A stretch of 35,391 nt of DNA from a virus (lineage: Duplodnaviria > Heunggongvirae > Uroviricota > Caudoviricetes): IMG/VR virus record IMGVR_UViG_2778261298_000003. The stretch is one strand, 5' to 3'. This document shows positions 1-20,576 of this stretch, in pieces. The translations under genes and the position numbers were made by a program. How positions within the stretch are numbered: position 1 is the first letter of the stretch; each line of letters begins with the position of its first letter. Below the pieces are notes generated by a model that saw nothing but the letters and a program-made list of their open reading frames with translations, was not told where the DNA came from and ran no database searches.

Positions 1-1284
1 TTACAGACTTCTGGAAGGTTGCGCAGCTCTTACAACACGCGGTTGATCTTCCGCGGCGTCTTCCAGCGCACTTAAATCACGGTCTTTCACTTCTGGCATT
101 TTCAGCGCAGAGATTAAACCAATCACTGAATATGCCATGATCATAATGGCGATCGGATACCAGGATTCCGTCATGGTGCAGAAAATACCCGCCAGGATAG
201 GACCAAAACCGGAAGCGATAAGACCACCAATTTCTTTAGAAATAGCCATCCGGGTAAAGCGGTTTTTACAGCCGAACATTTCTGCCATGGTAATATTTTC
301 CAGAGCAAATAATCCCAGCACCGCACAGTTATGAATCACAATCAGTGCAACCATAATGGTGCTCGGGGCATAGCTTTTATCTACGATGATAGAAAGCATT
401 GGCCATGCCAGCACAATCGCGGAGGTATTCATAATAATATACGGGATCCGGCGACCAATTTTATCGGATAACCAACCAAGGAACGGAATGGTCATAAAGC
501 CGAGAATCGAACTGATCATCAATGCATCTGTTGGAATTGCTTTGTTAAACAATAACGTCTGCACTAAATAGCCCGCAAGGAAAGTCTGAATTAAACCTGA
601 GTTACCCGCCTGACCAAAACGCAGCCCTGTTGCCAGCCAGAAGGATTTGCTCTGGAACATGCTACCAGCAGGTGCAGGTTTTGCTGTCGGTTGGTTGCTG
701 TCGTTAACCTTCTCAAAAACCGGGCTTTCTTTCAGATTCATACGCAACCAGATAGCAAAGACCATCACGACAACGCTCGCCAGGAACGGTATACGCCATC
801 CCCACGCCAGCAGTTCCTCTTTACTGAGAATGAAGAACATAAAGGCCCAGATTGCCGTTGCGCTTAAAGTTCCGCAGTTAGTTCCCATAGCCACAAATGA
901 GGAGATAATTCCGCGCTTACCTTTTGGCGCATATTCCGCCAGCATCGTACCGGCACCGGAAATTTCCGCACCTGCACCCAATCCCTGAATAATACGCAGC
1001 GTCACCAGCAAGATGGGGGCAAAAACACCAATCTGTGCATAGGTCGGTAACACACCAATTAAGGTGGTACAGATCCCCATCATGGTGATGGTAATAAAGA
1101 GCACTTTTTTACGCCCTATTCTGTCGCCCATTTTGCCGAAAATAAATGCTCCGACAATACGCGCCACATAACCTGCACCGTAGGTTCCCATTGCCAGAAT
1201 TAACGCCATTGCCGTTGATGATTCAGGAAAAAATATTTCATGAAACACTAACGCTGCGCCGAGCGAATATAACTGGAAATCCAT
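1..1284 (-). CDS. ydfJ: MFS-family transporter (YdfJ-like), probably N-terminally truncated at the prophage junction
   Basis: 427-aa multi-helix hydrophobic protein with the MFS loop motif G-x-x-x-D-R-x-G-R-K (GKMGDRIGRKK) at residues ~50-60, earlier than in full-length family members; ATG at 1282-1284. Confidence 0.8.
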   Translation of the reverse strand: MDFQLYSLGAALVFHEIFFPESSTAMALILAMGTYGAGYVARIVGAFIFGKMGDRIGRKKVLFITITMMGICTTLIGVLPTYAQIGVFAPILLVTLRIIQGLGAGAEISGAGTMLAEYAPKGKRGIISSFVAMGTNCGTLSATAIWAFMFFILSKEELLAWGWRIPFLASVVVMVFAIWLRMNLKESPVFEKVNDSNQPTAKPAPAGSMFQSKSFWLATGLRFGQAGNSGLIQTFLAGYLVQTLLFNKAIPTDALMISSILGFMTIPFLGWLSDKIGRRIPYIIMNTSAIVLAWPMLSIIVDKSYAPSTIMVALIVIHNCAVLGLFALENITMAEMFGCKNRFTRMAISKEIGGLIASGFGPILAGIFCTMTESWYPIAIMIMAYSVIGLISALKMPEVKDRDLSALEDAAEDQPRVVRAAQPSRSL

Positions 1285-1887
1285 AATTCACAGGTGTTTT
1301 TTCCCATCCTGTGGTTTCCTTGGCGTTTTCTAGGTTTTTTCAGATAGTTGCATTTTTTAAAAAGCATCCTAAGTTCGATCTCAGTGTCTATCTGGGGCCT
1401 ATTTCTGTCCCATATATGCCCCAAAAAAACTCCCCAACAGATAAGTAGTTTTTTCATGGATTTATGCGTAAAATCAAGAACGGCTGGAAATCATTCAATA
1501 CTCACACTATCGAAAAATTTACCAGCCAACCGCAGCACGTTCTTGCATAAGGCGTGTCTGCGGTTTTTCAACTATTCAGATACATCACTCCCATCACATT
1601 CATTCCTCCGCATCAAAGGCATATAGGCTATATCACCTTGATATTTTTCTTTTTCAGATAAAAACTGTTATCTATGTATACTTTTAAACCCAATCCGTGT
1701 AGAGTCTCTGCATAAGATAGTTTGCAGTTGCCGCTTCAGCTTGCGCCATAAACCGCCTGATTTTTGCTGCCACCTGTTAGCATTCCTGTATACCTGAAAC
1801 GACAATGTTTATCTACGAACTTTAAGAACACCCAAGATAAAAATTGTCAACTATATCATATATAACACATTACTAATTCGAGGCTAT

Positions 1888-2001
1888 ATGAACAGCATAC
1901 TGATAATCACTTCTCTCCTTATCATATTCAGCATTTTTAGTCATGCCCTAATAAAATTAGGGATTGGCATATCCAATAACCCAGACAAAACCGATGTATA
2001 A
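1888..2001 (+). CDS. Candidate small hydrophobic protein (37 aa, [37 protein letters not shown])
   Basis: ATG preceded by GAGG about 5 nt upstream; single predicted transmembrane helix; TAA stop at 1999-2001. Not in the ORF track (below length cutoff). Confidence 0.3.
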
Positions 2002-2069
2002 GTCAACATATCCTGAATCAGACATACAATATCGCAATGAAACTCAATAATATTTTAAGGAATATCTTC

Positions 2070-2303
2070 ATGAAATCAAAAGACACCCTAAAGTGGTTCC
2101 CTGCGCAGCTTCCTGAAGTAAGAATTATCCTAGGGGATGCTGTAGTGGAAGTAGCAAAACAGGGAAGACCTATCAATACCAGAACATTGCTTGATTACAT
2201 TGAAGGAAACATAAAGAAAAAATCATGGCTGGATAACAAAGAATTATTACAAACAGCGATATCAGTTCTTAAAGACAACCAAAATTTAAATGGTAAAATG
2301 TAA
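2070..2303 (+). CDS. ydfK: YdfK/YnaE-family prophage protein (cold-shock-induced family in K-12)
   Basis: ORF-track frame 2037..2303; start re-set to the internal ATG at 2070 (MKSKDTLKWFPAQLPEV...), which has an AAGGAA SD 8 nt upstream; 77 aa. Confidence 0.75.
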   Translation: MKSKDTLKWFPAQLPEVRIILGDAVVEVAKQGRPINTRTLLDYIEGNIKKKSWLDNKELLQTAISVLKDNQNLNGKM

Positions 2304-2619
2304 TATAATAAACTTACTTTTTTATCATTTTTCCACTTTAACAACATTTTGCTCCACTTTTCCACGATCAAACAACTTGAAATCTGGTTAAAATAACACG
2401 CAACACTATTCTTCTTCCTTGAGTCCGCCCGGAACTCGAAAAACAAACCGAGTTAAAGCCATTTTTCACAAAATCGATTTTGGGTCTCACCAAAATTACG
2501 GGGTTGCATACGCATTCGTTTATTTTCGAACGTGTACATACAAATATGCACAAAAATAATAAAAATTATTTTCTGAGATGCATTATGATATGAACACCAA
2601 TTTCGTATAGAGTCTCACT

Positions 2620-3210
2620 ATGTCTCGAATTTTTGCTTACTGTCGGATATCAACGCTGGATCAGACCATCGAAAATCAACGCCGGGAAATCGAAAGTGCA
2701 GGTTTTAAAATCAAACCTCAGCAAATAATCGAAGAACACATTAGCGGCTCAGCAGCAACCAGTGAGCGTCCTGGTTTTAACCGGTTGCTTGCTCGCCTGA
2801 AATGTGGTGATCAATTGATTGTGACAAAACTGGATCGCCTTGGTTGTAATGCAATGGATATCAGGAAAACAGTGGAACAACTGACCGAAACAGGTATCAG
2901 AGTGCATTGCTTAGCATTGGGGGGCATTGACCTGACCAGTCCAACAGGAAAAATGATGATGCACGTAATTTCAGCAGTCGCTGAATTTGAACGAGACCTT
3001 TTACTTGAACGCACTCATTCCGGGATAGTAAGAGCCCGCGGCGCAGGGAAACGTTTTGGTCGACCACCTGTGTTAAATGAAGAACAGAAACAGGTGGTAT
3101 TCGAACGAATTAAGTCAGGTGTAAGTATAAGTGCCATTGCCCGGGAATTCAAAACCTCGCGGCAAACCATTTTAAGAGCCAAAGCAAAACTTCAGACACC
3201 TGACATATAA
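2620..3210 (+). CDS. pinQ: Serine recombinase, DNA invertase of the Pin/Gin/Hin/Cin family
   Basis: 196 aa; N-terminal catalytic domain with active-site Ser in the YCRISTLDQ context; C-terminal helix-turn-helix; ATG start verified. Confidence 0.9.
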
Positions 3211-3307
3211 AAAATAATCTCGGTGTGAGATGCTTTACGTCTTCCAAGCCCCCTTCCTTGCCGTAAATGGAAAGATACATCTAATTATAGAATTTATATG
3301 TTTTACC

Positions 3308-3883
3308 CTACGGCAGTGCTGGCCATTCAATATCCTGTGCAGTTGACGTATCAACACGGTTCAGCAACACCCGATACTTTTTCCAGGCTTCCAGCAATGA
3401 GGTTTCTTCCTCCGTTGCGATTTCCAGATCTACAGCATCCTGAAGTGGTGCAATATGCTCACTGGCTACCTGCATCAGGCTGTTTTTTGTTTCTTCCGCC
3501 TCTCGGATCCGGAACAGTTTTTCTGCTTCTGCATCTTTCACCCAGGCTGTGCCGTTCCACTTCTGAAACTCCCCTTCCGGCGATAACCAGGTAACATTTT
3601 CCGGTAACGGACCGAGTTCAGAAATAAATAACGCGTCCCCTGACGCTACGTCATAAACCGTTTTACCCCGATGGTCTTCAACGAGATGCCACGATGCCTT
3701 ATCACTGTTGAAAACAGCCACAAAGCCAGCAGGAATATCTGGTGGTGCAATATCGGTACTGTTTGCTGGCAGACCTGTATGAGGCGGAATATATGCGTCA
3801 CCTTCACCAATAAATTCATTAGTTCCAGCCAGCAGATTATAAATTTTTATGGTCCGTGGTTGTTCACTCATTCTGAATGCCAT
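3308..3883 (-). CDS. tfa: Tail fiber assembly protein (Tfa)
   Basis: 191 aa, lambda Tfa-like ([24 protein letters not shown]...); its ATG overlaps the stf stop. Confidence 0.9.
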
Positions 3884-6582
3884 TATGCAAGCCTCACAAT
3901 ATAGTTAAATGCGATGTTTTTGACGGTGTTTTCCGCGTTACCAGCAGCGTTAACGGTGATGGTGTGTCCATGTGAACCAATCGCAACGGAGTGCGTATGA
4001 GCACCAATACCGACAGTATGCGCGTGTGCACCTGCAGATGCTGCTGTGCCGGACAGTGAATGGCTATGATTACCATCTGTACTGGTATTCGCTAACCACC
4101 CCGTAGACATACCTACTGAGCCTTGTACACCCCAGGTATTTTGACCTGAGCTTGTATAACCATATTGATAAGTATCTTTAAAAACACTGGGGTTAAATCG
4201 ACGGCCATCTCTATGGCTGTGATTACCAGCTGCATTCGTGCTGCCACTTAAACTATGGGTATGCGCACCAGTGTTATTCGTGGATTTAGTGCCGTAATCA
4301 AACGACGATGTGGTTTTCGTCCCCAAATCCGTACTGGATGCGCTGGCGCTGTGGGTATGCGATTTAATGCCGTCCTGTTCCTGAGACAATACGGCCCGAC
4401 CACTGGCAGGTTTGCCCTTAATCGTCCAGCCACGCATATCAGGGATCACGCCTGACGGATAAGCGGCTGCAAGTTTCGGGTATGCAGATTTGTCAAAAGT
4501 CTGCCCCTGCATCAGGGCATAGCCAGACGGAACGGTATCTGATGGCCACGGGATTGGTGCGCCAGGCGGATAAAACTGCTCTGATGGCGTATAGAGTGAA
4601 TAAACTGTACCGTCCGTTAACCCTTCCGGCTTATTAGCAGAATATGCTGGTGACGTATGAATCGTCACGCTGGCATTACTGGTATAATCCCATTGAATAT
4701 TTACACCAGTCGCATAATTTCCGATTGCAACGTAAATATCGTAAGTATCACCAGATGTATTGACCCAGGCAAAATTTGTAAACCCTGTCGATGTGCGCTG
4801 CCATAAAGCACCAGTAATCCCCTTCGGATTACCATTACCTGCACGTAAAACAAGTTCAGATATACCTGCCTGTTGAGGTGACCCCACGTTAAATCCAGCG
4901 CCACCAATCAACGTAATTGAAACAACAGAACTCGCCTGTGGCATGGTTACCGTTGCTAATTTGAACCAACCAGCACCACCGCTGAATGACATTGTTGTTG
5001 AGTTAAGCGTACCAATATCTTTCGGCGTCAGTGTTATATCCGCTGAAAGCGCCTTACCATTCACCTTACGGGCAGAAGGTACCCGACCATTCGCATTGTC
5101 ATTAGCTGCTTTCACTGCTTTCGGTGTCGCAGCAAGCGTTTCAGATGTGCTGTTGGTTGCACTACTGAGCTGGACAATTCCTTTTTGTGCTGTCGTAGCG
5201 TCCTGTGCGGTGTATTTCCCGTTAGCCAGGTCATACGCGGCCTTAACGGCTTTTGGCGTTGCCGCCTGTGACTCGGAAGTGCTGTTAGTCGCACTGCTGA
5301 GCTGAACTATCCCTTTCTGTGCTGTCGTTGCATCCTGTGCGGTGTATTTCCCGTTAGCCAGGTCATACGCGGCCTTAACGGCTTTTGGCGTTGCCGCCTG
5401 TGACTCGGAAGTGCTGTTGGTCGCACTGCTGAGCTGTACTATCCCCTTTTTCGTCGTGCTCGCATCCTCAAGCGCCACGGCGGATGCAATATCCTCTGCC
5501 CGTTTTGCTGCTGTCTCGGCGCGCGTTGCCGCGGATTCCGCCGTACTTTTGCTCTGTGCTGCCGCTGCCGCACTGCCAGCAGCCTCTGTCGCCTTCGTGG
5601 ATGCCGTCGTGGCGCTGCCCCTCGCTGCTGACGCCTGTCTGGTCGCCTCATCTTTTGAAGCAGACGCAGATGATGCAGCCGCTGTTTTTGAGCCTGCCGC
5701 AGCCGAGGCGCTCTGTCCCGCTGCCGTTTCAGAAGACCTGGCGTTCGTCTCGGACGTTTTTGCCGCCTTCGCGGAATTTCCTGCCGCCGTTGCCGAGGAA
5801 GCGGCACTACTGGCGCTTGATGATGCGTTCGTTTCTGATGATTTTGCCGCCTCTTTTGAAGCCGACGCATCCCGTGCTGAAGTGGCTGCTTCTGACGCTT
5901 TCGTAGTCGCGGTGGATGCAGAAGTGGCTGCTGATTGTTGTGACGCTGCCGCATTCGTTTCTGACGTTTTCGCCGCACCGGCACTGGTAGCCGCCGCGCT
6001 TTTTGAGGACTCTGCAGCGGCAGCACTTTTTAATGCTTCAGTGGCCTTTGTTGATGCCGTTCCTGCGCTGGAAGACGCTGACTGAGCCGACGAAGCAGCC
6101 TGTCCGGCTGACGTGCTGGCTGCGCGTGCTGAGCCTGCAGCATCAGTCGCATGGGTTGCCGCCTCACGGGCTGATGTGCTGGCATCGCTGGCTGACTTCT
6201 TCGCGGCTGCCGTGTTCTGTGCCACCGCGGACGCGTTACGCGCCACCTCTTCCACCATCAGTTCAAAACGGCGCAGTGCCTCAGGACGGGCATCATCCTC
6301 CGTCATGGCACCGAGAAAATCATTCAGCGTACCGGGTCGGGAATCTTCATACACGGTGATGGTCCCGGCATGTGACGGCGGGAATCCTTCCACCAACAGA
6401 ATAACGCTGTACTGACCGTACTCAACGTCCATGCTGTAACGCCCGGCTTCATCCGGATTTTCTGAGGCCAGCGTGTTCACCACCACCGTGGTACTGTTAC
6501 GTTTTGCTTTCAGCTGGATTGTGCAGTTCTGTACCGGTTTTCCTGTGCCGTCTTTCAGTACACCTGAAATCTTTACTGCCAT
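3883..6582 (-). CDS. stf: Side tail fiber protein (Stf) with Ala/Ser/Thr-rich shaft, tandem 44-aa repeats and Gly/His-rich C-terminal region
   Basis: ORF-track frame to 6588 begins on GTG; the lambda-like N-terminus [20 protein letters not shown] starts at the ATG at 6580-6582; C-terminus ...[18 protein letters not shown] matches lambda Stf. Confidence 0.9.
5110..5460. repeat. Tandem direct repeat, 132-bp unit, about 2.5 copies, inside stf
   Basis: The string cctgtgcggtgtatttcccgttagccaggtcatacgcggccttaacggcttttggcgttgccgcctgtgactcggaagtgctgtt recurs 132 bp apart (from 5201 and 5333); encodes the repeated [15 protein letters not shown]...[27 protein letters not shown] motif. Confidence 0.75.
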
Positions 6583-6593
6583 ATTCACCCCAC

Positions 6594-6620
6594 AAAAAAG
6601 CCCGCCTGAACCGGCGGGCT
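6594..6620 (-). terminator. Rho-independent terminator-like hairpin between lom and stf
   Basis: GC stem gcccgcc/ggcgggc with a 6-nt loop, followed on the minus strand by a T-run (plus-strand aaaaaa at 6594-6599). Confidence 0.5.
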
Positions 6621-6646
6621 GTCATAACACTGTGTTACCTGGCTAA

Positions 6647-7246
6647 TCAGAATTTATAACCGACACCCACGATGAAACCGTCAGTGCGCCAGTCGCCACT
6701 GCCGGAACCTTCATAAGCGACATCAACGGCCACGGATTCGGTCGGGTTAAACTGCACGCCAGCCCCCCACGCCAGAGACGTGTTGCTGTGGCGACCGTCA
6801 TCACTTCCGATCAGCACATCGTGCGTTTTCCCCGTATTGTCGGTCACCTGCAGATAATCCCCGGAGAAAGTCGACACACGGCTGTAAGCCACACCCGCCA
6901 TCGCATACGCGCTGAACCATTCATTCACGCGCACAGACGGCCCCGCCATCACGCTGAACCAGCGGTTACGCACGGAATCTTCATGCCAGCGGGTATCGCT
7001 GTAATGCGTTTTTTGCTCATCTTCAGCGTTGGCATAACTGAATGACGTAATCAGCCCCAGCGTGTCCGTAAACTCATAACGGTATTTCACGTTAATCCCG
7101 TTCAGATTATCGCTGCCGGGAGCGTTCGTACGGGCATGAAGATACCCTGCGCTCAGTGTGGCCTGCTGCTCAGACGCCCATGCAGGCGCACCGGATACGG
7201 CCAGACAGATGGCTGCGGACAAAATGGCTGCACAAACTTTACGCAT
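6647..7246 (-). CDS. lom: Lom outer-membrane beta-barrel protein (Ail/Lom/PagC family)
   Basis: 199 aa with signal peptide [24 protein letters not shown] and C-terminal ...[10 protein letters not shown]; ATG verified. Confidence 0.9.
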
Positions 7247-7267
7247 AATTACCTCTCGCTTTTCTGC

Positions 7268-7296
7268 AATAAAAAAGGCGCCATTTCTGGCGCCCG
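7268..7296 (-). terminator. Rho-independent terminator-like hairpin between J and lom
   Basis: Stem ggcgcca/tggcgcc with loop tttc, flanked by an A-run on the plus strand (T-run on the minus strand). Confidence 0.5.
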
Positions 7297-7313
7297 TATA
7301 TGGGTTATAAAAT

Positions 7314-10300
7314 TCAGCTGATACTGATGCCTGCGGTGGCTTTCTTCATCACCACAACCAGCAAATCGCTGATACTTGCTGTGGGATACCAGTCATTTAC
7401 CAGCCATGCTGACACCGAAAACTCCAGCGTCATGTGGCCGTGACCAGCTGGCATATCAATAACACCACTGTAAATCAGCGTATTATCCAGCGCGGTACGG
7501 TTATAAATTTCAGCACCATTTTTCTTCACTATCAGGCGGCATGACGAATAAATATCGTTATTCTCCCGCTCATGTTTAGCGCCGCAGAATGCCACCGCCG
7601 GAATAACAATTTGCCTGTCAAAAGGCTGATCGTCATAAATCCTGACGGTAATGGTCCCTGATGGCCACCGCTCCGGTGCCCGGGAGTCCCGCGGGAAAGC
7701 CTTACCCACTGTTTTGACAATATCGCCTTCAATCTGGTTGGCTGACAGTTTCCCTTTAATCTGACAGTTCTCATTTATCGTAACGTTGTTGAGCGTCCCG
7801 GAGTTCGCATTCACACTGCCACTGATATCTGCATTTTTAGCGGTCAGCTTTCCGTCCGGTGTCAGGGAAAATGCAGGAGGATTACCGCCGCTGGTAATGG
7901 TGGGAGCCGTCAGATATTTCAGGAACACTTCATTCATAAATATCTGATCACCCTGACCAACAAACATCGGTTTTGTGTTGCCATTTGCAGGATTAATCAT
8001 CGCAATCCTGTCTGCCGCCAGCAGCACCTGACTCTGCATGCCGTCGGGGGTGTTCTCAATACCGGCACCGATACCCGCGATATAAAGGCGTCCGTCCTGC
8101 ATCTGCTGCAGCTTCACAGCCCACATGCTGTTCAGATTATTATTTGTATCAACCTGAACCTTCTGTATCTGCTGGATCGCTGCACTCTGGTCTTCCAGTT
8201 TCTTATTGACGGTCTGTGTGATTTCATTGCTGACATCCGTAATGGATGTCCTGATTTCAGCCAGGTCAGGCGCAAGCTGACCGTTATCAATCTGCGTCCA
8301 CAGCTCCTGAGCCAGATGGGTTTTCCCTATCTCGCCTTTGAAAAAATCCAGATAGCCGGATGCGTCATCACTCGGCTGACCAACAGCCTCCACGAATGCC
8401 GATTTGCCAACGGTGTTCACACTGCGAACGTAAAAATAATAATTATGGCCCGGCCTGATATTGATACTGGCGGCTATCCAGTACAGCGCCGTGCCAAGAT
8501 AGCGTGCTGTGGTTTCAACCTGCCTGATATCCGCAATCCGCTTTTCCGAGAACCAGAACTCAAACTGTACCGTCGGATCATAAACCGCAAGATGCGGCGT
8601 GGCGGTTATCTGAAAATAGCCCGGCGTCAGCTCAATCCGCGACGGCGCTGCCGGTGCGGCAATCCGGAACGATACCGACGCCGGATCGCCCTGCTGCCCC
8701 CACGCATTTACTGCCCGGACTGTCAGCCTGTAGTTCCCCAGAGCCAGTTGTGTGAAGCGGTAAGTGGTTTCCGTCGTCCGGGCCGTGCTGACCAGCCGCT
8801 CACTGCCGTCATCCGCTGTTACGGTCAGGCGAAGCATGAAACTCACGCCCTTCACCACCTTCGGCGTGTCCCAGCGGGCCAGTACCTGATACTCCCCGCT
8901 GTCTGCGGTGACTTCGGCAGTCAGGTGCTGCACTGCTGGCGGCGTGACACCATTCACCGTGCCGCTCTGGTCGCCGTCAAAGTGCGCCCCGTTATCCACG
9001 ATAGCTTCTTTTTCCGGTACATGCTGCACGGCGGTGATGGCATACGTGCCGTCGTCGTTCTCACGGATACTCACGCAGCGGAACAGGCGCTGGCGCAGCG
9101 TCGGCAGCTTCAGCCCCCATACGCTGTATCCGGCAACGCCGTCAGGAACACGGCTCACTTTTACCTTCACGCCGTCGGTGACGGACTGGACCTCCACGCT
9201 GACCGGATTGCCACTTCCGTCAACCAGGCTTATCAGCGTGGTACCGGAGGATGGCAGCGTGATTTCACGGTCGAGCGTCAGCGTCCGGGTCTGGCTGTTC
9301 ACCGCCAGCACGCGCCCGCCGGTGCTGATCCCCGCATAGTCATCATCGCAGATTTCAATGACATCGCCCGGCACATGGCGAAGCCCTTCCGCACCCACGC
9401 TGAAGTCCACGGTCTGCGTTTCCAGTAGTTCCGTTTTAATCAGCCACAGCCCGGCGCGGTGCGCCTGCCCCCGGCTGGTACAGCCAAAGGCATCCATCTT
9501 CGTGACGTTACGACCGTAACGGAGAATGGCCTGCGTATCTTCAACAAGCTCTGTCGCCGTCTCCCAGCCGTTATCCGGGTCAATCCAGTTCACCTCAACG
9601 GCATTATGACGGTCCTTCAGGGCACTGAAGCTGTAGCGGAACGGCGCGCCATCATCCGGCATCACCACATTACTGCAGTTATAGGTCCACACCTTATCCG
9701 ACGGTCGGTCCTGCACGAACGTCAGCGTCTGCCCGTTCCATACCGGCATACAGCGCATCGCCGAGCAGAAATCACTGAGAACATCCCACGCCTTGCGCTG
9801 TGTGGTCAGCCAGGCATTACAGGTGATGCGCGGCTCCGTGCCGCCAAAACCGTCCGGCACCGACTGATCGCAATGCTGGCCGATGACATACAGCGCCCAT
9901 TTGTCCACATCCGCCGCACCGAGACGCTTCCCCATGCCGTAGCGCGGATGGGTCAGCATATCCCACAGACACCAGGCCATGTTGTTGCTGTATGCTGGCT
10001 TAAACGTTCCGTCCCAGATACCGCTGTATTGCCGCGTCTGCGGGTTATAGTTCGACGGCACCTGCAGAATGCGCCCGCGAAGATGATAATTACGGCTCAC
10101 CTGCTGGCTGCCGAACTGTTCCGAGTCCACCTGCACGCCGACCAGTGCCGTGTTCGGGTAGCACTGTTTCACATCGATGATTTCGGTGTATGACGACCAG
10201 AGCGTTTTGTTCTGCAGCTGGTCTGTGGTGCTGTCCGGCGTCATTCTGCGCATCCGGATATTAAACGGGCGCGGCGGCAGGTTATCCACCACCACCGAGG

Positions 10301-10793
10301 CCAGATACTGCGAGGTGGTTTTGCCCTTAATGGTGATGTCTTTTTCCGTCACCCAGCCACCATTACGCTGTATCTGAACCAGCAGGCGAACTTCCGACGG
10401 ATTCCGGTCCCCCTTTGAGGTGGTTTCCACCAGTGCCTGCACACCGAAGGTAAAGCGCAGTCGGTCGATGTTTGCCGACGTGATGGCGCGGGTGATCGGC
10501 GTGTCGTATTTCACTTCCGTACCCAACACCGTCTCGGAGCCGGAGGATTCAAATCCCTCCGGCGGAGTCTGCTCCTGCTCACCAGCCCGGAACACCACCG
10601 TGACACCGGCGATGTTGGTATTCCCATCACTGTCCAGCACCGGCGTACTGTTCAGCAGCACGCTTTTTAATCCATCCACCGGACCTTCAATCGGCCCTTC
10701 ACTGATGGCATCAATCACACTCAGCAACTGCGTGGACTTCAGGTTGTCCTTCGCTTCGCGCGGGGTATGCCCCTTACTGCTTCCTTTACCCAT
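7314..10793 (-). CDS. J: Tail tip / host-specificity protein J (central fibre)
   Basis: 1159 aa, lambda J-like throughout with fibronectin-III-like middle region; ATG verified. Confidence 0.95.
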
Positions 10794-10853
10794 TCCTCAC
10801 GCTCCATAAACGACAAAACCGCCCGCAGGCGGTTTCACATAAAACATTTTGCA

Positions 10854-11525
10854 TCAGCGACCAATCACCACAACCTGACCACCGTCCCCTTCGTCTGCCG
10901 TGCTGATCTCCTGAGAAACCACGCGTGACCCCACGCGCATTTCCCCGTACAGAACAGGCAGAACATTGCCCTGGGCAACCATGTTATCCAGTGAGGAGAA
11001 ATAGGTGTTCTGCTTACCGTTATCCGTTGTCTGTGTACGGGGAGTTCTGGCTTTCGGTGCCAGCATCTGCGCCACACCACCGAGCACCATACTGGCACCG
11101 AGAGAAAACAGGATGCCGGTCATACCACCGGCCCCAATGGCTGCCCCCCATGCTGCAAGGGTGGCTCCGGCGGTAAAGAATGATCCGGCAATGGCGGCAG
11201 CCCCCAGGACAATCTGGAATACGCCACCTGACTTGGCCCCGGCGACTCTGGGAACAATATGAATCACAGCGCCATCAGGCAGAGTCTCATGTAACTGCGC
11301 CGTTAACCCGGACGTGCTGACGTCCCGCCCGGCAATCCGTACCTGATACCAGCCGTCGCTCAGTTTCTGACGAAACGCCGGGAGCTGTGTGGCCAGTGCC
11401 CGGATGGCTTCAGCCCCCGTTTTCACACGAAGGTCGATGCGGCGACCAAATCGTTGTAAATCCCCGTAAAGGCAGATGCGCGCCATGCCCGGTGACGCCA
11501 GAGGGAGTGTGTGCGTCGCTGCCAT
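10854..11525 (-). CDS. I: Tail assembly protein I
   Basis: 223 aa; overlaps the 3' end of K by about 100 bp, as in lambda. Confidence 0.9.
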   Translation of the reverse strand: MAATHTLPLASPGMARICLYGDLQRFGRRIDLRVKTGAEAIRALATQLPAFRQKLSDGWYQVRIAGRDVSTSGLTAQLHETLPDGAVIHIVPRVAGAKSGGVFQIVLGAAAIAGSFFTAGATLAAWGAAIGAGGMTGILFSLGASMVLGGVAQMLAPKARTPRTQTTDNGKQNTYFSSLDNMVAQGNVLPVLYGEMRVGSRVVSQEISTADEGDGGQVVVIGR

Positions 11526-12166
11526 TTGTCGGTGTACCTCTCTCGTTTGCTCAGTTGTTCAGGAATATGGTGCAGCAGCTCGCCGTCGCCGCAGTAAATT
11601 GCGGCGTGATTCGGCACCGATGAACCAAAACAGCACAGCAGCACATCGCCCGGCTGTGCCGCTGACAACGGCACCTGATACAGCCCCGTCGCCTCCAGAT
11701 TATCCAGATAGAGATTCTGGCCGTTACGCCACCAGTCATCCTCACGATGAAAGTCCGGCATCTCAATCCCCGCCAGATGATAAGCATCCCGGAACAGTGT
11801 GTAACAGTCCGTCACACCGTGCTCAAAGCGCCGCCCGGTGAGATGCGGCACACAGCGGAACTTATGAATCGTCCCCCGGCAGACCAGCCACCACGGCAAA
11901 TCACTCTGCACCTGCAGCCGCCGGTCGGCCTCACTCAGCCAGGGCAGACCACCGGGGTGGCTGTGGACCAGCGCCACAATCTCACCCTGCATTTCTGCCT
12001 GCAGCCAGTCTTCCGGCGACATACGGAAATACGCCTCCGGCTCACCGGAGATATTCACGCAGGGGAAATATCTTTCCCCCTCCGGCGTGCTTACCACGAA
12101 GCCGCACGACTCCGCTGGCGCACATCGCCGGGCGTGCGCCAGAATCGCTGATTCTGTCTGTGTCAT
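11423..12166 (-). CDS. K: Tail assembly protein K (N-terminal JAB/MPN metalloprotease-like domain, C-terminal NlpC/P60-like domain)
   Basis: 247 aa from the ATG at 12164-12166, 5 nt after the L stop; JAMM-like motif HSHPGG...SEAD in the N-terminal region. Confidence 0.85.
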   Translation of the reverse strand: MTQTESAILAHARRCAPAESCGFVVSTPEGERYFPCVNISGEPEAYFRMSPEDWLQAEMQGEIVALVHSHPGGLPWLSEADRRLQVQSDLPWWLVCRGTIHKFRCVPHLTGRRFEHGVTDCYTLFRDAYHLAGIEMPDFHREDDWWRNGQNLYLDNLEATGLYQVPLSAAQPGDVLLCCFGSSVPNHAAIYCGDGELLHHIPEQLSKRERYTDKWQRRTHSLWRHRAWRASAFTGIYNDLVAASTFV

Positions 12167-12171
12167 GGGAT

Positions 12172-12870
12172 TTACTGCGAAAGTTTGTTAATGGAAAGGA
12201 AGCCGCCAAAGTTGCCGACGTTATTGCGGAACTTACAACCGCTCAGGCATTTGCTGCATTTATCCTTCGTGATATCGGACGTTGGCTGGTCATATTCATC
12301 CGCGACAGCCGGACCGCTATAACCGCACTCGTCACCGCGATAGGTCCAGGTGCAGGTGTTGGCCAGCATGATACGTCCCGGAAAAACAGCGCCATCCGTT
12401 TCCGTCGGCGTGGACAGTACAAAAGAGGCACTCACCGCGCTCAGTTCGCTGCACTGCTCAATGCGCCAGCGGCTGATCACCTCCTGCTCCGGATCGGCGC
12501 CACTGTTTCCGTTGACGAAGTTCACCGCATCCAGAAAACGGGCGTAAACCTTACGCCGGACCACCGTTCCACCGACCAGACTCTGCAGATCTTCCGCCAT
12601 CCCGGTGACCATACCGTACAGGTTAGAAACCGTCAGTGTGGGGCGCGTACTGGTGCCTTTGCCATTCAGTTCAAAACCACTCCCCTGAATGGGATACGGC
12701 TGATACTGTCGCCCCTGCCAGGTGACCGGCTCACCTTTTTCGTTCTGCTCATTACAGAAAAAATAACGTTCTCCACCGACCTCTGTCAGGTCGATTTCCC
12801 AGAGCACCACGCTGGCCGACTGCTCCGCACGGGTGCATTCATTCAGTGTTTCCTGCCGGATATCCTGCAT
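12172..12870 (-). CDS. L: Tail tip assembly protein L
   Basis: 232 aa (MQDIRQETLNECTRAEQSASVVLWEIDL...), lambda L-like. Confidence 0.95.
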   Translation of the reverse strand: MQDIRQETLNECTRAEQSASVVLWEIDLTEVGGERYFFCNEQNEKGEPVTWQGRQYQPYPIQGSGFELNGKGTSTRPTLTVSNLYGMVTGMAEDLQSLVGGTVVRRKVYARFLDAVNFVNGNSGADPEQEVISRWRIEQCSELSAVSASFVLSTPTETDGAVFPGRIMLANTCTWTYRGDECGYSGPAVADEYDQPTSDITKDKCSKCLSGCKFRNNVGNFGGFLSINKLSQ

Positions 12871-13199
12871 CAGTTCACCACCTGTTCAAACTCTGCGCTG
12901 AACTCAACACGCAGCATACTGACCCGCGACGACCATTTTGCGCAGGTCACCTTTATCTGCCGCCACTCATAAGGCGGCGTCCACAGAAAGGCTTTCCAGC
13001 CCCCGTGCTCAGCCAGAAACGACTCCAGCGCCGTGGCCTCCCAACGGGGAACAGAAAGCGTCACGCTGTACGTTTTCAGGTCGGCATTCAGCCCGGCAGG
13101 CGCTCGCTGGGAATAGCCATCACCAAAGCGCACTTTCCTGACGGAAGGGGCCGAAGCCACATCCATACCGGGTTTCACTTTCCAGCGGAAGGTCTTCAT
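12870..13199 (-). CDS. M: Tail tip assembly protein M
   Basis: 109 aa; start overlaps the H stop. Confidence 0.95.
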   Translation of the reverse strand: MKTFRWKVKPGMDVASAPSVRKVRFGDGYSQRAPAGLNADLKTYSVTLSVPRWEATALESFLAEHGGWKAFLWTPPYEWRQIKVTCAKWSSRVSMLRVEFSAEFEQVVN

Positions 13200-15775
13200 C
13201 GTCCACCTCCGGAGAACAGACCACCATCGCGCATCTGTGCCTGAATTTCATCACGGGCACCCTTGCGGGCCATGTCATACACTGCCTTCATCATCTGTGG
13301 ACCTGGCAGACCATTCGTACCGTCGTTCTGAATCACCACGTGATTGTTCTGATTAAAATTAATGCCTTCAGCCCGCCGCATCTGCGCCGGACTTCCGGCA
13401 CCGCCCACATAACCACCTTCCGCATAGCCCCGCATCAGGCGGTACAGGTTGCCGACACCAATTCGGCTGGTTGCCTCCTTCGTGAAGACAAATTCACCAC
13501 GGTGAACAATCCCCGCTGGCTCATATTTGCCGCCGGTTCCCGTAAATCCTCCGGTTGCAAAATGGAATTTCGCCGCAGCGGCCTGAATGGCTGTACCGCC
13601 TGATGCGGATGCGCCGCCACCAACAGCCCCGCCAATGGCGCTACCGATACTCCCGACAATCCCCACCATTGCCTGCTTAAGCAGAATTTCTGTCATCATG
13701 GACAGCACGGAACGGGTGAAGCTGCGCCAGTTCTGCTCACTGCCGGTCAGCATCGCCGCCATATTCTGCGCAATACCATCAAAGGTCTGCGTGGCTGCAC
13801 TTTTAACCTGCGACATACTGTCCGTGGCGCTCTCTTCCCACTCACTCCAGCCGGACCTGAGGCCTGCCATCCAGCTCCCGCGAAGCTGGTCTTCAGCCGC
13901 CCAGGTCTTTTTCTGCTCTGACATGACGTTATTCAGCGCCAGCGAATTATCGCCATACTGTTCCTTCAGGCGCTGTTCTGTGGCTTCCCGCGCTGCCTGC
14001 CGGTCAGTAAGCCCCCGGTTTTTCGCCTCAATGGCTGCCCGTTTTGCCCGTTGTTGCTGTGCGAACTTATCCGCCTGCTGCGCCAGCGCGTTCAGGCGCT
14101 CCTGATACGTAACCTTGTCGCCAAGTGCAGCCAGCTGGCGTTTGTACTCCAGCGTCTCATCTTTATGCGCCAGCAGGGATTTCTCCTGTGCGGACAGCTG
14201 GCGACGTTGCGCCGCCTCCTCCAGTACCGCGAACTGACTCTCCGCCTTCCACAAATCCCGGCGCTGCTGGCTGATTTTCTCATTTGCTCCGGCATGCTTC
14301 TCCAGCGTCCGGAGTTCAGCCTGAAGCGTCAGCAGGGCAGCATGAGCACTGTCTTCCTGACGATCGCCCGCAGACACTTTCACGCCGGACTGTTTCGGCT
14401 TTTTCAGCGTCGCTTCATAATCCTTTTTCGCCGCCGCCATCAGCGTGTTGTAATCTGCCTGCAGGATTTTCCCGTCTTTCAGTGCCTTGTTCAGTTCTTC
14501 CTGACGGGCGGTATATTTCTCCAGCGGCGTCTGCAGGCGTTCGTAAGCCTTCTGCGCCTCTTCGGTATATTTCAGCCGTGATGCCTCAGACTCGGCCCAG
14601 TCCTTTGCTGCCATCTCTCTGGCCTTTTCAAGATCGGCCTGCAACGTGGCGGCTGAAAGCCCAAGTTGCGCATTCGCTCTGTCCTCCCATGCTCCCCGGA
14701 GATTGGCAAGAAATGCTGAGGTTTTACCGCGCCGGTGGCTTCGGCTCTGATACCACTGCCATTTTTTGTCCGCCTCATCAAAAGCCTTTTCTGCTTTCTC
14801 CAGCATTCCCTGGGCAGTGTCCGGGCGACCAATATCCAGCACCGAATCCCACATGGATTTGAATGCCCGTGCTGTCCTGTCTGCCCAGGTCTCCAGCGTG
14901 CCCATGTTCTCTTTCAGGCGGCGGGTCTGGTCATCAAACCCTTTCGTTGCGGCCTCGTTCGCCGCCTGCAATGCCCCGGCTTCATCTCCGGAACGCTGCA
15001 ACTGAGCAACATACGCAATCTGCTCCGCCGTCACGTTATGGAACTGACGTGCCATCGCTGTCAGTCCCGACGTCGGGTCTGTGGTCAGCTTCCCGAAGGC
15101 TTCAGCGACCTTGTCCACCTCCACGCCGGATGCAGAGGAGAAACGCGCCACACTCTGGCTGATCGCCTCAAACTGCTCACCACCACGCACACCGGCATTC
15201 ACCAGCGCCGTCAGTGACTCGCTGGTCTGGTTAAACGTCAGCCCTGCCGCCTGCCCGGCTCTGGACAGGGCCAGAATACGATCTGCCGTCAGTCCCGCCT
15301 GATTGCCGGAAAGGACCAGCGTTTTGTTGAAATCGGACAGGGTTGAGTTGCCCTGATACCAGGCATACGCCAGCGCACCGGTCGCCACCGCCAGCGAGGT
15401 GGCCCCCACCATCGGCAGGGTGATCGCACCGGCAAGCCCCCTGAACATGGGGATCATCCCGCCGAAGGAGTCCTTAACCTGACCACCCTGTTGCAGCAGG
15501 ATCAGCCACGGACTTTGCCCGCCTGCAAGCTGCGTGGCCACGTCGGTGAACTGTGCAGGCAGCATACGCATGGCGGCTTTATACTGCCCGACGGAAATCC
15601 CCGCTTTCTGTGCAGCCAGCGCCTGTCGGCTCAGCGACTGTTCAACGACTGCCGCTGTTTTTTTCGCATCAGTTTCCGTACCGGAAAAATGACGCCTGAC
15701 TCTGGCCATCTGCTCGTCAAATCTGGCCGCATCCAGACTTAAATCAACGACCAGATCGCCTACCGGTTCAGCCAT
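13196..15775 (-). CDS. H: Tail tape measure protein H
   Basis: 859 aa, coiled-coil-rich, Gly-rich C-terminal segment; lambda H-like. Confidence 0.95.
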   Translation of the reverse strand: MAEPVGDLVVDLSLDAARFDEQMARVRRHFSGTETDAKKTAAVVEQSLSRQALAAQKAGISVGQYKAAMRMLPAQFTDVATQLAGGQSPWLILLQQGGQVKDSFGGMIPMFRGLAGAITLPMVGATSLAVATGALAYAWYQGNSTLSDFNKTLVLSGNQAGLTADRILALSRAGQAAGLTFNQTSESLTALVNAGVRGGEQFEAISQSVARFSSASGVEVDKVAEAFGKLTTDPTSGLTAMARQFHNVTAEQIAYVAQLQRSGDEAGALQAANEAATKGFDDQTRRLKENMGTLETWADRTARAFKSMWDSVLDIGRPDTAQGMLEKAEKAFDEADKKWQWYQSRSHRRGKTSAFLANLRGAWEDRANAQLGLSAATLQADLEKAREMAAKDWAESEASRLKYTEEAQKAYERLQTPLEKYTARQEELNKALKDGKILQADYNTLMAAAKKDYEATLKKPKQSGVKVSAGDRQEDSAHAALLTLQAELRTLEKHAGANEKISQQRRDLWKAESQFAVLEEAAQRRQLSAQEKSLLAHKDETLEYKRQLAALGDKVTYQERLNALAQQADKFAQQQRAKRAAIEAKNRGLTDRQAAREATEQRLKEQYGDNSLALNNVMSEQKKTWAAEDQLRGSWMAGLRSGWSEWEESATDSMSQVKSAATQTFDGIAQNMAAMLTGSEQNWRSFTRSVLSMMTEILLKQAMVGIVGSIGSAIGGAVGGGASASGGTAIQAAAAKFHFATGGFTGTGGKYEPAGIVHRGEFVFTKEATSRIGVGNLYRLMRGYAEGGYVGGAGSPAQMRRAEGINFNQNNHVVIQNDGTNGLPGPQMMKAVYDMARKGARDEIQAQMRDGGLFSGGGR

Positions 15776-16202
15776 ACCGGACTCCTCCTGCGATCCCTTC
15801 TGATACTGTCATCAGCATTACGTCATCCTCCGTCATGTCCGCCACATCCGGGGAAGCGGGGATAACTTCATTCCCGTCCGGGCCAAAACGAACGCCTCCG
15901 GCAAGCCCTGCCGCTTTCTGCATCAGCACATCATCTTCAGGCTCTTCGTCAGCCTCGCGCCGGTTCAGCAGACTGAAATCCAGCGGATGCATATCCGGAT
16001 CGCTGAAAAACAGGCTGAGCACGGTGTACGTCAGCCCGGAAAAGTGCATATCCAGCAGAACATCATGAAAATAATGGGTACTGTAAAAGCGGTGCCAGTC
16101 GGCATACTCCGTGGATGACATCCCGGCAAGCATGGCACGCCAGTCGGGTCGCCCCATCTCGCGCGCCAGTTTCAGGGCAAAACTCAGCTCACCGTCGAAC
16201 AC
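15768..16202 (-). CDS. T: Tail assembly chaperone T frame (expressed as G-T fusion by -1 frameshift)
   Basis: 144-aa frame beginning at the 3' end of G in the -1 frame; lambda T-like. Confidence 0.85.
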   Translation of the reverse strand: MFDGELSFALKLAREMGRPDWRAMLAGMSSTEYADWHRFYSTHYFHDVLLDMHFSGLTYTVLSLFFSDPDMHPLDFSLLNRREADEEPEDDVLMQKAAGLAGGVRFGPDGNEVIPASPDVADMTEDDVMLMTVSEGIAGGVRYG

Positions 16203-16606
16203 TTTCCCGCAGAAACAGGCTCTGCAGGCCCGGCATCCTCTGCCTGTTCAGGGGCATCATTCACCACAAACTCATACATACCGGACAGCCGGTACACCAC
16301 GTTTTCAGCATGAGAAATTGCCTCTGTAGGCCAGGTGGTAAGCACTTCCTGCTCAATCTGTTTAACGGCTTCATTCATGGAAGGCATCTGCGTCTTCTGC
16401 GGATGGTTATGCCACAGGGACATCGCCACCACACAAGCACCGGTTCTGATGGCGTCTTCCACAGTAAACTTCCGGTTGCTGTCTGACTCCGCCTGTTCTG
16501 CCTGCCGTTTCATCAGGGCGAGATGCTCAATACGCTGCAGGGCTGACAGTTCAGAAAGCGTGACGGTCACACCGTTATGTTCAAATGATTCGGTTTTCAG
16601 GAACAT
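16184..16606 (-). CDS. G: Tail assembly chaperone G
   Basis: 140 aa (MFLKTESFEHNGVTVTLSELSALQRIEHL...), lambda G-like. Confidence 0.9.
   Translation of the reverse strand: MFLKTESFEHNGVTVTLSELSALQRIEHLALMKRQAEQAESDSNRKFTVEDAIRTGACVVAMSLWHNHPQKTQMPSMNEAVKQIEQEVLTTWPTEAISHAENVVYRLSGMYEFVVNDAPEQAEDAGPAEPVSAGKCSTVS
16198..16210 (-). other. Programmed -1 ribosomal frameshift slippery heptamer G GGA AAG in the G/T overlap
   Basis: Plus-strand ctttccc at about 16201-16207 is the reverse complement of GGGAAAG, 5 codons upstream of the G stop, as in lambda G-T. Exact position uncertain by 1-2 nt because my reading of the sequence line and the ORF track disagree by one base here. Confidence 0.55.
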
Positions 16607-16621
16607 CGCTGACTCTCCGGA

Positions 16622-17362
16622 TTAACTGGCGGTGACGTTGATTTCTGCAACCGCAGCAAGTTCACCATTACCGGATACGACCGGAATGTTGACCTTGCCT
16701 GCAGCAACACCTTTCACGGTGATGGTCATACCACTGACCGACACGGTGGCTTTTGTTTTATCCGCTGACACCGCACGGAAGCTCTTGTCGGTTGCGCCTT
16801 CCGGCTGGAATGCCACGGTCAGCGTGGTGCTCTGCCCTTTCACCACCGAGGTGCTGGCAGGCGTCACGGTCATGCCGGTTGCCGCTGTGACCGTGCTGTG
16901 ATCTTCTGCCATCGACGGACGGCCCACATTGGTGACCTTCACCGTGCGGGTGATCACTTCCTTCGCCGTCACCGCCTTACCGATACTGCTGACCCAGCCG
17001 CGGAACACATCGACCGTGCCATTCGGGAAGCGGATTTTATAGGCTCGGGTATCCCCTTCATTAAACCACGCCAGCAGCGCCTGCTGCCCCTGCTCTCCGG
17101 GCATCCACGCCAGCGTGAAGCTGGTATCTCCGGCAGATTTCTGCCCCTGCCCGGTCGCAGTCCAGTCCGCATCTTCATCATCGAGATAGCTGTCGTCATA
17201 GGACTCAGCGGTCAGTTCGCCGGGCGTCAGGTCTTTAACTTTAGCCAGACGCGACCAGTCAACGTCTGAAAGCGGGTTCGCATAAGGGTCACCGTTCCCC
17301 TTATAAACCCACAGTGTGGTCCCGGCCCCTTTCACCGGCATTACTGGATTTGGTACAGGCAT
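16622..17362 (-). CDS. V: Major tail tube protein V with C-terminal Ig-like domain
   Basis: Start re-set to the internal ATG at 17360-17362 ([22 protein letters not shown]...), preceded by a GAGGA SD; 246 aa. Confidence 0.9.
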
Positions 17363-17369
17363 AGCGTCC

Positions 17370-17765
17370 TCACATTTCATAGGTAATGACATAAGTCAGA
17401 TCGGCTGAACTCCACAGGCCCGCATCATCGTCGCGCCGGTAGTCATAGCCGCTGGCCACCATACTGGTGATCAAATCTGACAGTGCCGGGATATCGCTCA
17501 TCACCGGATAAATCCGGGACTCCATCCACGAATCCAGCTCTGAATCCGGCACCTGAGCAGGCAGGAAAACTTCAATATGCAGCTCCGCCTGCCAGGTATC
17601 GCTGTCCAGCTCTTCGCCCGTGTATTCAGCGCCGGTGAGATAAACGGCAATTGCCGGAAAATCCGCCTCATCAAAAACAGCGGGGCGACCATCAAAAAGC
17701 GTCGCCCCGGTGTCATGCTTCTCCAGTGCATCCAGTACGGCTGCACGGAGTTCAGTATGTTTCAT
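17370..17765 (-). CDS. U: Tail terminator protein U
   Basis: 131 aa ([22 protein letters not shown]...). Confidence 0.9.
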
Positions 17766-18340
17766 CGCTTTATTACCATTCTCAGTTGATGCTGCAGCGC
17801 ATAGCCCAGCTCTTTCGGAAGACGTTCACGCCGTATCCGTTCAATATTCTGTTTAAACGCCGTGGTAAGCGGCACCGCCATCGGGATTTTCACCACATCA
17901 ATGGGGTAACGGTTTTTCCCGGCCACACGCTGCATGACATGCCACCGGCCATTTTTCAGTTGCTGAATAAACGCGCCGGGAATACGACGGTTTCCCACCA
18001 CAAGCACGCTGCCGCCACCTTTCAGGGATGAACGCTGCCCCTTTTTACGACGTCTGCGGCGGGAAAGGACAACCCGCGCGTTACCCAGCTTGATTACGGG
18101 CAAATCCCCCCGGTTAACCCTGATTCTGGCCTGCGGATTTTTGACCGTGGCCCTTTTCAGCCTGGCCCTTTCCTTTACCAGTTTCCGGCGTACCTTTGTC
18201 TCACGGGCAACCTGTGACGCAGACTGCGATATCGCGGATGACGCAACGCGGTTAATGGCCATTGCGGCGGCACCAGGCACCGCCGTTTTGCTGATACGGC
18301 TGAGGTTTTCAACGGCCTGCTCAAGACCTTTTATGGCCAT
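17762..18340 (-). CDS. Z: Tail completion protein Z
   Basis: 192 aa (MAIKGLEQAVENLSRISKT...). Confidence 0.9.
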   Translation of the reverse strand: MAIKGLEQAVENLSRISKTAVPGAAAMAINRVASSAISQSASQVARETKVRRKLVKERARLKRATVKNPQARIRVNRGDLPVIKLGNARVVLSRRRRRKKGQRSSLKGGGSVLVVGNRRIPGAFIQQLKNGRWHVMQRVAGKNRYPIDVVKIPMAVPLTTAFKQNIERIRRERLPKELGYALQHQLRMVIKR

Positions 18341-18351
18341 ACATCCCCCTT

Positions 18352-18705
18352 TCAGCGGCGACGGTTAACGGCAGGCGGCACGCCACGCCCAAGCCAGAGA
18401 TGACAGCTTCCGCCATCATCCGGCGAAATCCGGTCCACCCAGAAGTTTTCCTCGCCGATGGTCAGTGTGTCTCCACGCCGCAGCTGCCGCACATCATCAG
18501 TCCGGACAAACAGGGACGGGCTGGAGCCTTCAACGCGCACCCCCTGTCCGGCATAGCTGATATTTTCAGGGTCATCAAAAACACCACGTATCACAGCACC
18601 GGACAGCTCACCGGATGTCATGGTGGCTGACGTTCCCATGTACCCGCGTATCGTTTCATCGGCGCGGGCAATGGCAGCATCGAACAGGTTATCGGAATCA
18701 GCCAC
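18352..18705 (-). CDS. FII: Head-tail connector protein FII
   Basis: 117 aa (MADSDNLFDAAIARADETIRGYMG...); first codon appears to be GTG as read. Confidence 0.9.
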   Translation of the reverse strand: MADSDNLFDAAIARADETIRGYMGTSATMTSGELSGAVIRGVFDDPENISYAGQGVRVEGSSPSLFVRTDDVRQLRRGDTLTIGEENFWVDRISPDDGGSCHLWLGRGVPPAVNRRR

Positions 18706-18716
18706 AGCGCCTCCCG

Positions 18717-19112
18717 TTATTGCATTCTGGCCAGGCCATGTTCTGTCATTTCGGCTGCCACACCGGCAGAGACACGAAACGCCGTTCCCGGCAGCACAAA
18801 TGCCACAGGCTCATCCCGCGTGGCGTGAAGTGCATCAGTATGCAGCGTCACCAGTGCCACGACCGTGACCAGAGCAGCCGTATCAATCACGGTATCCGGC
18901 TGCGCTGATACCACCTCATTTTCATGTCCGGTCAGCGCATTTTCCGGGCTGACAGATGTGTCCTGACCGGCAGCGTCATCCGTGTCATCAAGCTCCTCTT
19001 CCAGCTCTGCCACACGGAGCACCAGTTCTTCTTTCGTCCCCGTCAGGCTGACATCACGGTTCAGTTGCTCACCCAGCACCTGAAGACGGGCAATCAGTTC
19101 ATCTTTCGTCAT
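18717..19112 (-). CDS. FI: DNA packaging protein FI
   Basis: ORF-track frame extends to 19151; start re-set to the internal ATG at 19110-19112 (MTKDELIARLQVLGEQLNRD...), 131 aa. Confidence 0.85.
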   Translation of the reverse strand: MTKDELIARLQVLGEQLNRDVSLTGTKEELVLRVAELEEELDDTDDAAGQDTSVSPENALTGHENEVVSAQPDTVIDTAALVTVVALVTLHTDALHATRDEPVAFVLPGTAFRVSAGVAAEMTEHGLARMQ

Positions 19113-19153
19113 GGACTCCTCCACAGAGAGAAAATGGCCCCGAAGGGCCATGA

Positions 19154-20179
19154 TTACGCCAGTTGTACGGACACGAACGCATCAGGATCAGCCAGCAGCA
19201 TCAGCGGTGCTGACTGAATCATGGTGAACTCACGCGCCGGATCGCCGGTGGTCACCCAGTTTTTCGGGTAGCGGGCAGAGGCGTTAATACCTTCGCGCTG
19301 TGCGTCCGCATCCTGAATGCAGCCATAGGTGCGCAGACCGCGTGCCTGAGTGTTCCCCAGCACCATCGTGTTGTCCGGCAGGAAGTTCTTTTTGACGTCG
19401 TTTTCCACGTACTGTCCGGAATACACGACGATCGCCGTATCGCCATACATCCCCTTATAGGACACCGCTTCGCCCAGGTCTTTTACCGCTGTCTCCAGCT
19501 CGGAATTAGAGCCGCGACGGGTATCCAGCTTCTCCTTGACGGCTTTGAAGGAACGGAACAGCGCCCAGCCTTTCGGATCAAACACGATGATATTCACCAC
19601 GCCGCTGGCGTTCAGCGCATAGGCTTCGATATCGTCGGTCGGGTCATACGTGGACTTGTCACGCTTGCTCCACTCCGTACCACCGGACTGTGTGATGTTG
19701 TTCGCCGCACTGCGGCCCATATCCACCTCAACCGGATCGAAGGCTTCACCGGTCATGGTGTATTTGCCCTTAAGCACAGCAGAAACTGCCTGCATCTCTT
19801 CGACCTGAGCAATGGCCAGCTCTTCGTCTCGCATGTTCTGCATGATGATGCGACGGCGGCGGTAAGCCGGGTCCGCCAGATTCTGCGGATCTTCATCCGG
19901 CAGGCGACGCAGGGTCATCTGCGGATTCACCTCATGCTTGGGTTTGACATATCCCGGCGTAAATTCAGAGGTGGAGCCGCCACGGGAACGGATAACCTCA
20001 CCGGAAACAATCGGCGAAACGTACAGCGCCATGTTTACCAGTCCCGGAATTTGTGAGAGATAGACTTTCTCCGTGGTGAAGGGATAGCTCTCACGGAAAA
20101 AGAGACGCAGAAACAGCGGATCAAACTTAAATTTCTGCTCATTTGCCGCCAGCAGCTGGGCGGTTGTGTACATCGACAT
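19154..20179 (-). CDS. E: Major capsid protein E
   Basis: Start re-set to the ATG at 20177-20179 (MSMYTTAQLLAANEQKFKFDPLFLRLFF...), 341 aa; lambda gpE-like over its length. Confidence 0.95.
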   Translation of the reverse strand: MSMYTTAQLLAANEQKFKFDPLFLRLFFRESYPFTTEKVYLSQIPGLVNMALYVSPIVSGEVIRSRGGSTSEFTPGYVKPKHEVNPQMTLRRLPDEDPQNLADPAYRRRRIIMQNMRDEELAIAQVEEMQAVSAVLKGKYTMTGEAFDPVEVDMGRSAANNITQSGGTEWSKRDKSTYDPTDDIEAYALNASGVVNIIVFDPKGWALFRSFKAVKEKLDTRRGSNSELETAVKDLGEAVSYKGMYGDTAIVVYSGQYVENDVKKNFLPDNTMVLGNTQARGLRTYGCIQDADAQREGINASARYPKNWVTTGDPAREFTMIQSAPLMLLADPDAFVSVQLA

Positions 20180-20234
20180 AAAAAAATCCCGTAAAAAAAG
20201 CCGCACAGGCGGCCTTTAGTGATGAAGGGTAAAG

Positions 20235-20567: not shown

Positions 20568-20576
20568 AAACATCCC

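Follow-up and report, generated by a model that had tools for sequence, protein, structure and literature searches.

Junction of a Qin-type lambdoid prophage with the 5' end of Escherichia coli ydfJ: a very probable attL site in an IMG/VR virus record

The window, that is, the whole stretch of 35,391 nucleotides that was analysed, contains at positions 1276–1286 what is almost certainly the attL site left by integration of a Qin-type lambdoid phage into the 5' end of the Escherichia coli gene ydfJ. In the proposed mechanism, the phage tyrosine integrase would have recombined attP with the chromosomal attB across an identical 11-bp core, placed in ydfJ codons 29–31, and this integration would have split ydfJ in two. 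Codons 29–455 would remain at the prophage end contained in the window, beside the ynfT-ydfK-pinQ-tail fibre arm, and the promoter, the ribosome-binding site and codons 1–31 would have gone to the other end of the prophage, past the integrase, to form the 36-aa hybrid ORF ynfP. The remnant, with neither its own promoter nor half of transmembrane helix 1, would most likely be non-functional. The features of the window and their coordinates are shown in Table 1.

Table 1. Features at the chromosome-prophage junction and along the prophage arm of the window
Feature	Position	Strand	Basis
5'-truncated ydfJ, codons 29–455 and stop, MHS-family MFS transporter	1..1284	-	ORF list, identity to M217, PGAP
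att common core GAAATCCATAA, 11 bp, attL copy	1276..1286	.	Same 11-mer at the right end of K-12 Qin and at MS1665 attR
Qin-type lambdoid prophage from the attL end; continues past the window, integrase end outside	1287..35391	.	Gene order as in K-12 Qin and MS1665
Short inverted repeat CACAGG-N13-CCTGTG, phage arm of attL, beside the core	1290..1314	.	Read from sequence
ynfT, small protein, 37 aa, prophage arm	1888..2001	+	Annotation of matching genomes
ydfK, prophage cold-shock-induced gene	2070..2303	+	Annotation of matching genomes
pinQ, serine DNA invertase, 196 aa, intact	2620..3210	+	Resolvase E=2.5e-36 and HTH_7 E=3.8e-11 (Pfam), annotation
tfaQ, tail fibre assembly protein	3308..3883	-	Pfam Caudo_TAP E=3.1e-44, annotation
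Side tail fibre gene, 901 aa, full length	3883..6588	-	ORF list, MS1665 and K-12 annotation

The core GAAATCCATAA reads on the minus strand as ATG GAT TTC, the codons Met29-Asp30-Phe31 of YdfJ, and the identity in register of attB and attP is limited to these 11 bp. The first phage-specific base is 1287, which agrees with the sequence-only reading, made before this analysis, that had placed the prophage end near 1285–1300; the left prophage boundary of the window can now be fixed to the base. The same 11-mer is present at both ends of K-12 Qin in direct orientation, at L001 4278 (attL) and L001 24747–24757 (attR), and the feature annotated as 'cryptic prophage Qin' in K-12 MG1655 extends from 1632277 to 1652745, its left end corresponding to window position 1276. 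No second copy of GAAATCCATAA was found within the 35,391-base window, its sole occurrence being at 1276. Since the core is single in the window and the far end lies beyond base 35391, the direct-repeat test was carried out on related genomes; the att-like repeat predicted for the far prophage end was recovered there, in K-12 and in strain MS1665. The chance of an exact 11-mer at a specified site is 2.4e-7, and, counting both strands, 50 kb would be expected to contain about 0.02 occurrences. A stronger argument than this figure is that the reciprocal attB and attP are both found in nature exactly as predicted.

The frame upstream of the ORF start reads ...TGA ATT ATG, with an in-frame TGA one codon before the ATG, so that zero phage-encoded residues are added to the ydfJ remnant. 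This ATG, which belongs to the core, is the codon that specifies the internal Met29 of native YdfJ. The N-terminus of YdfJ is thus to be regarded as severed rather than replaced; the proposal that the true N-terminus was replaced when the prophage inserted holds for its loss by insertion but not for the replacement. The short inverted repeat located in the phage arm beside the core (Table 1) is also present within the contiguous attP of free phages; it may serve attP as a protein-binding site, or form a weak hairpin.

The ydfJ remnant is a 427-aa ORF of the minus strand, with its ATG at 1284–1282 and its stop codon at 3–1 (ORF list), the first bases of the window being the ydfJ stop codon. Its translation opens with MDFQLYSLGAALVFHEIFFPESS. 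Pfam MFS_1 was detected in this ORF with E=2.6e-37, and TIGR00883, the model of the MHS subfamily, gave 453.5 bits, above the curated cutoff of 443.45, and 462.9 bits on the intact YdfJ orthologue. The loop 2–3 motif G-x3-D-R-x-G-R-[RK] is present as GKMGDRIGRK at ORF residues 50–59, corresponding to residues 78–87 of intact YdfJ, and only about half of helix 1 together with helix 2 lies ahead of it in the truncated ORF; these helix counts were derived from the motif position and the profile alignment coordinates, with no topology predictor. A Kyte-Doolittle scan (19-residue window, threshold 1.4) resolved helix 1 in neither the truncated nor the intact form. In the profile search, the alignment of the truncated ORF started at position 37 of 438 in ShiA, 40 of 500 in ProP and 37 in PRK10406, and that of the intact orthologue at positions 12, 22 and 14, respectively. 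Both the motif position and the late start of the profiles bear out the earlier observation that the transporter ORF is short at its N-terminus before the loop motif. The 427-aa ORF, from which 28 residues are absent, has neither an entire N-terminus nor the whole of transmembrane helix 1 that belongs to the 12-helix architecture.

The sequence-only reading had further claimed that a prophage-chromosome junction truncates the 5' end of the transporter gene, and had proposed an alignment with intact orthologues from prophage-free strains. In this alignment 427/427 residues were identical to residues 29–455 of the intact 455-aa YdfJ of the prophage-free strain M217; the same N-terminus was not found, the prophage-free orthologues carrying 28 more residues, and the claim is upheld. 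Orthology to YdfJ is indicated by the identity to M217 and by the presence of ydfI directly downstream in every matching genome inspected. The PGAP label of the ORF in the matching genomes is 'MHS family MFS transporter YdfJ; incomplete; missing N-terminus'. Chance does not explain the shortened N-terminus, which is real; by its sequence, the 427-aa ORF represents a fragment of a gene and falls short of full membership of the MHS family. An annotated ydfJ product of 427 aa is a fragment truncated by the prophage, and annotations should not present it as a full-length transporter.

The empty site was reconstructed by joining the chromosomal side of the window, one copy of the core and the right flank of K-12, which gave a continuous 455-aa ORF, MTIEKHERSTKDLVKAAVSGWLGTALEF followed by MDFQLYS... 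The predicted 400-nt attB was matched over 400/400 bases in single pieces in complete E. coli genomes. It was present in one place (at least 80% of the query), with ydfJ adjoining rspB, in 2007 of the 5426 complete genomes; strain M217, with no prophage, has there an intact ydfJ of 1368 bp, annotated as 455 aa and adjoining rspB. Megablast of window positions 1–2400 gave matches in all 5426 genomes, and the ydfJ-ydfK junction of the type of the window was detected in 1986 of them (80% or more of the query covered in one place, with the annotations ydfJ, ynfT and ydfK). In this collection, the ydfJ site thus carries this junction type in about 37% of the genomes and is empty in about 37%, and ydfJ is already established as a standard lambdoid attachment site in E. 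coli. At 80% coverage, both the junction of the type of the window and the empty attB were missing from about 1400 of the 5426 genomes; their ydfJ site is probably occupied by other elements or rearranged.

The evidence on attR, integrase and excisionase comes from K-12, strain MS1665 and free phages; the window ends before the far end. Strain MS1665 is the closest whole-prophage match (99.5% over window positions 1–25000). Its far end, ...CATGACTCTT-GAAATCCATAA-ATTCAAGCGCAG..., is identical to K-12 attR, and beside it a 426-aa tyrosine integrase (Arm-DNA-bind_2 E=3.7e-22, Phage_integrase E=3.9e-18) is encoded next to an 83-aa excisionase (DUF1233 E=1.6e-31). In K-12, intQ is a pseudogene that carries IS2. 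An attP was predicted by placing the core between the integrase-side arm and the phage arm of the window; it was found contiguous in Escherichia phage PhiR42_1 (349/349 bases), and with 98–99% identity in mEp460_ev081, HannyBb and Tritos; in these four phages the match adjoins the integrase gene, overlapping the integrase annotation. In addition, 15 records of Stx2a-converting phages (LC727844 and others) matched the integrase-side arm of attP at 89% identity, and these matches break off precisely where the 11-bp core ends (query 4–135). A related integrase module could use this ydfJ core in combination with another arm on the opposite side.

The existence of both the predicted attB and the predicted attP argues for site-specific integration and not for a deletion scar, the alternative that had also been suggested from the sequence alone. 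In that alternative, a deletion or rearrangement in or near an older prophage would have removed the 5' end of the transporter gene and the boundary would not be an att site. Qin-type prophages are often decayed: K-12 Qin is without head and tail genes and has IS2 in intQ, and the Qin-type prophage of EcPF16 shows several IS insertions and truncations. However, a random deletion would yield neither an attB nor an attP match, whereas flank, core and flank make up a real empty site base for base, with the reciprocal attP in free phages, and the 5' fragment of ydfJ is still present, intact, at the other prophage end as ynfP in K-12. The junction has the features of a clean integrase-type attL, with exact counterparts in genomes and phages, and a scar is so improbable that it can practically be dismissed. 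It is scarcely conceivable that the 427-aa ORF is a natural, complete transporter and that the phage genes lie nearby by coincidence, even if the K-12 RefSeq record gives ydfJ (b1543) as a 427-aa CDS, 'putative transporter YdfJ', and the TIGR00883 score of the ORF is still slightly over the cutoff. Against it stand the uninterrupted site beside rspB in the 2007 genomes, with ydfJ annotated as 455 aa in the one inspected (M217), the approximately 25 further N-terminal positions aligned by the MHS profiles in the intact form, and the flagging of the short form by PGAP as missing its N-terminus.

Under the preferred reading, integration of a Qin-type phage at attB, the other fragment of ydfJ comprises the start codon and the first 31 codons, of which 28 are unique and three, Met-Asp-Phe, come from the duplicated core. 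In K-12, YnfP is a protein of 36 aa formed by these first 31 ydfJ codons and five phage-encoded codons: MTIEKHERSTKDLVKAAVSGWLGTALEFMDFKSHAC. YnfP is among the small proteins detected in K-12 (VanOrsdel et al. 2018, PMC6001520 Table 1), and its detection indicates that the native expression signals of ydfJ stayed with that fragment. For the remnant, no Shine-Dalgarno-like sequence was recognized by our own reading in the 20 nt before the ATG (GGGAAAAAACACCTGTGAATT). Seven promoter-like matches were counted in positions 1100–2700, with no excess over shuffled sequence (5.7 +/- 2.4); the promoter and terminator scan of this region gave nothing above the shuffled expectation and is uninformative on expression of the remnant. 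In an MFS fold, both insertion and the N-domain bundle would be expected to suffer when half of helix 1 is lost. The ydfJ remnant is probably inert.

A reading that differs from the former in its consequence only is that the remnant is expressed by read-through or from a promoter of the phage arm, giving a working or neofunctional 11.5-helix transporter. The remnant ORF is uninterrupted, the K-12 annotation keeps it as a CDS, upstream promoter-like matches exist on the minus strand (e.g. 2079–2052), and 15 nucleotide differences separate it from the truncated ydfJ of K-12, all of them (15/15) synonymous, with 0 amino-acid changes. This synonymous-only pattern could reflect continued constraint, and equally polymorphism older than the (possibly independent) integrations; it can be inherited from intact alleles, as the protein equals the intact allele of M217. 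With promoter-like matches no more frequent than in shuffles, no Shine-Dalgarno-like sequence ahead of the ATG and half of helix 1 absent, such a transporter is unlikely. Excision would rebuild ydfJ exactly, so that integration and excision could constitute a reversible on/off switch of YdfJ, and Qin-type phages whose integrase and excisionase are intact do occur at the ydfJ site. A switch of this kind, in the manner of 'active lysogeny', or a function of its own for YnfP or the 427-aa remnant in lysogens, is very unlikely.

The prophage of the window has the order tail, head, terminase, lysis and cold-shock genes, followed by the late-regulatory genes ydfT and ydfU. Bases 1287–26000 were 96–97% identical over 92–95% of their length to the phages PhiR68_2, Kati, PhiR34_1 and PhiR42_1, the matches to isolated phages being mosaic, in 4–8 aligned pieces. 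As the prophage far exceeds K-12 Qin in completeness and resembles isolated phages, it may be inducible. The G+C content is low (35–41%) at 1300–2600 and 26000–32000, versus 55–61% in the structural genes; the low-G+C stretches coincide with the accessory genes at attL (ynfT and ydfK) and with the region of cold-shock genes, gnsB and lysis.

The ynfT peptide is hydrophobic and identical to YnaM of the Rac prophage; it was detected in K-12 by tagging, under its name at that time, ynfQ, and the YnaM and YnfT peptides are both listed as detected proteins (PMC6001520 Table 1). No convincing inverted-repeat pair marking a Pin-invertible tail-fibre segment was found, the best pairs being of 14–22 nt with 73–87% complementarity, and pinQ, which is next to the tfa and stf genes, may encode an orphan invertase that has no invertible segment. 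Three tandem repeats of 132 nt, encoding units of 44 aa, occur at 5087–5482 in the side tail fibre gene (100%, 77% and 63% identity to the first). Its product has 901 aa in the window versus 986 aa in MS1665; the number of repeats or the length of the tail fibre may vary between strains.

The insertion of Qin in ydfJ is already known from the literature and from genome annotations, this being the classical Qin attachment site. Qin has been described as integrated at the 5' end of ydfJ, with loss of the promoter and 28 N-terminal codons (Ramisetty and Sudhakari 2019, PMC6379469), and as present in 48% of 638 strains (PMC6379469). The E. coli W genome paper gives ydfJ as the place where Qin is inserted in W, K-12, B and Crooks (PMC3032704), and in SE11 a lambda-like prophage was located 'between ydfJ and rspB' (PMC2608844).

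In K-12, the attachment site of Qin is in ydfJ and its remnants are ydfJ b1543 and ynfP b4534, b1543 being the same 1284-bp ORF. K-12 Qin shares with the window the integration base, the 11-bp core, the truncated ydfJ with 0 amino-acid differences and the flanking phage genes ynfT, ydfK, pinQ and tfaQ. On the other hand, K-12 Qin is a 20.5-kb decayed remnant without head and tail genes between stfQ and nohA, whereas in the window a stretch of about 23 kb, bounded by the tail fibre and terminase genes, makes up a full lambda-like structural module that includes the tail, head, portal and terminase genes, and the side tail fibre gene, truncated in K-12 (stfQ), is full length in the window.

With respect to isolated lambdoid phages, PhiR42_1, mEp460_ev081, HannyBb and Tritos carry the attP predicted from the attL of the window and the related attR, with 98–100% identity, and PhiR68_2, Kati and PhiR34_1 resemble the window in the structural genes. 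These phages are free or induced genomes with attP, and the window represents the integrated form with attL. The Rac prophage, at the 5' end of ttcA, is like Qin a case of site-specific lambdoid integration inside the 5' coding end of a host gene; integration of Rac results in a variant N-terminus of TtcA, whereas with Qin ydfJ loses its promoter and 28 codons and receives no substitute (PMC6379469).
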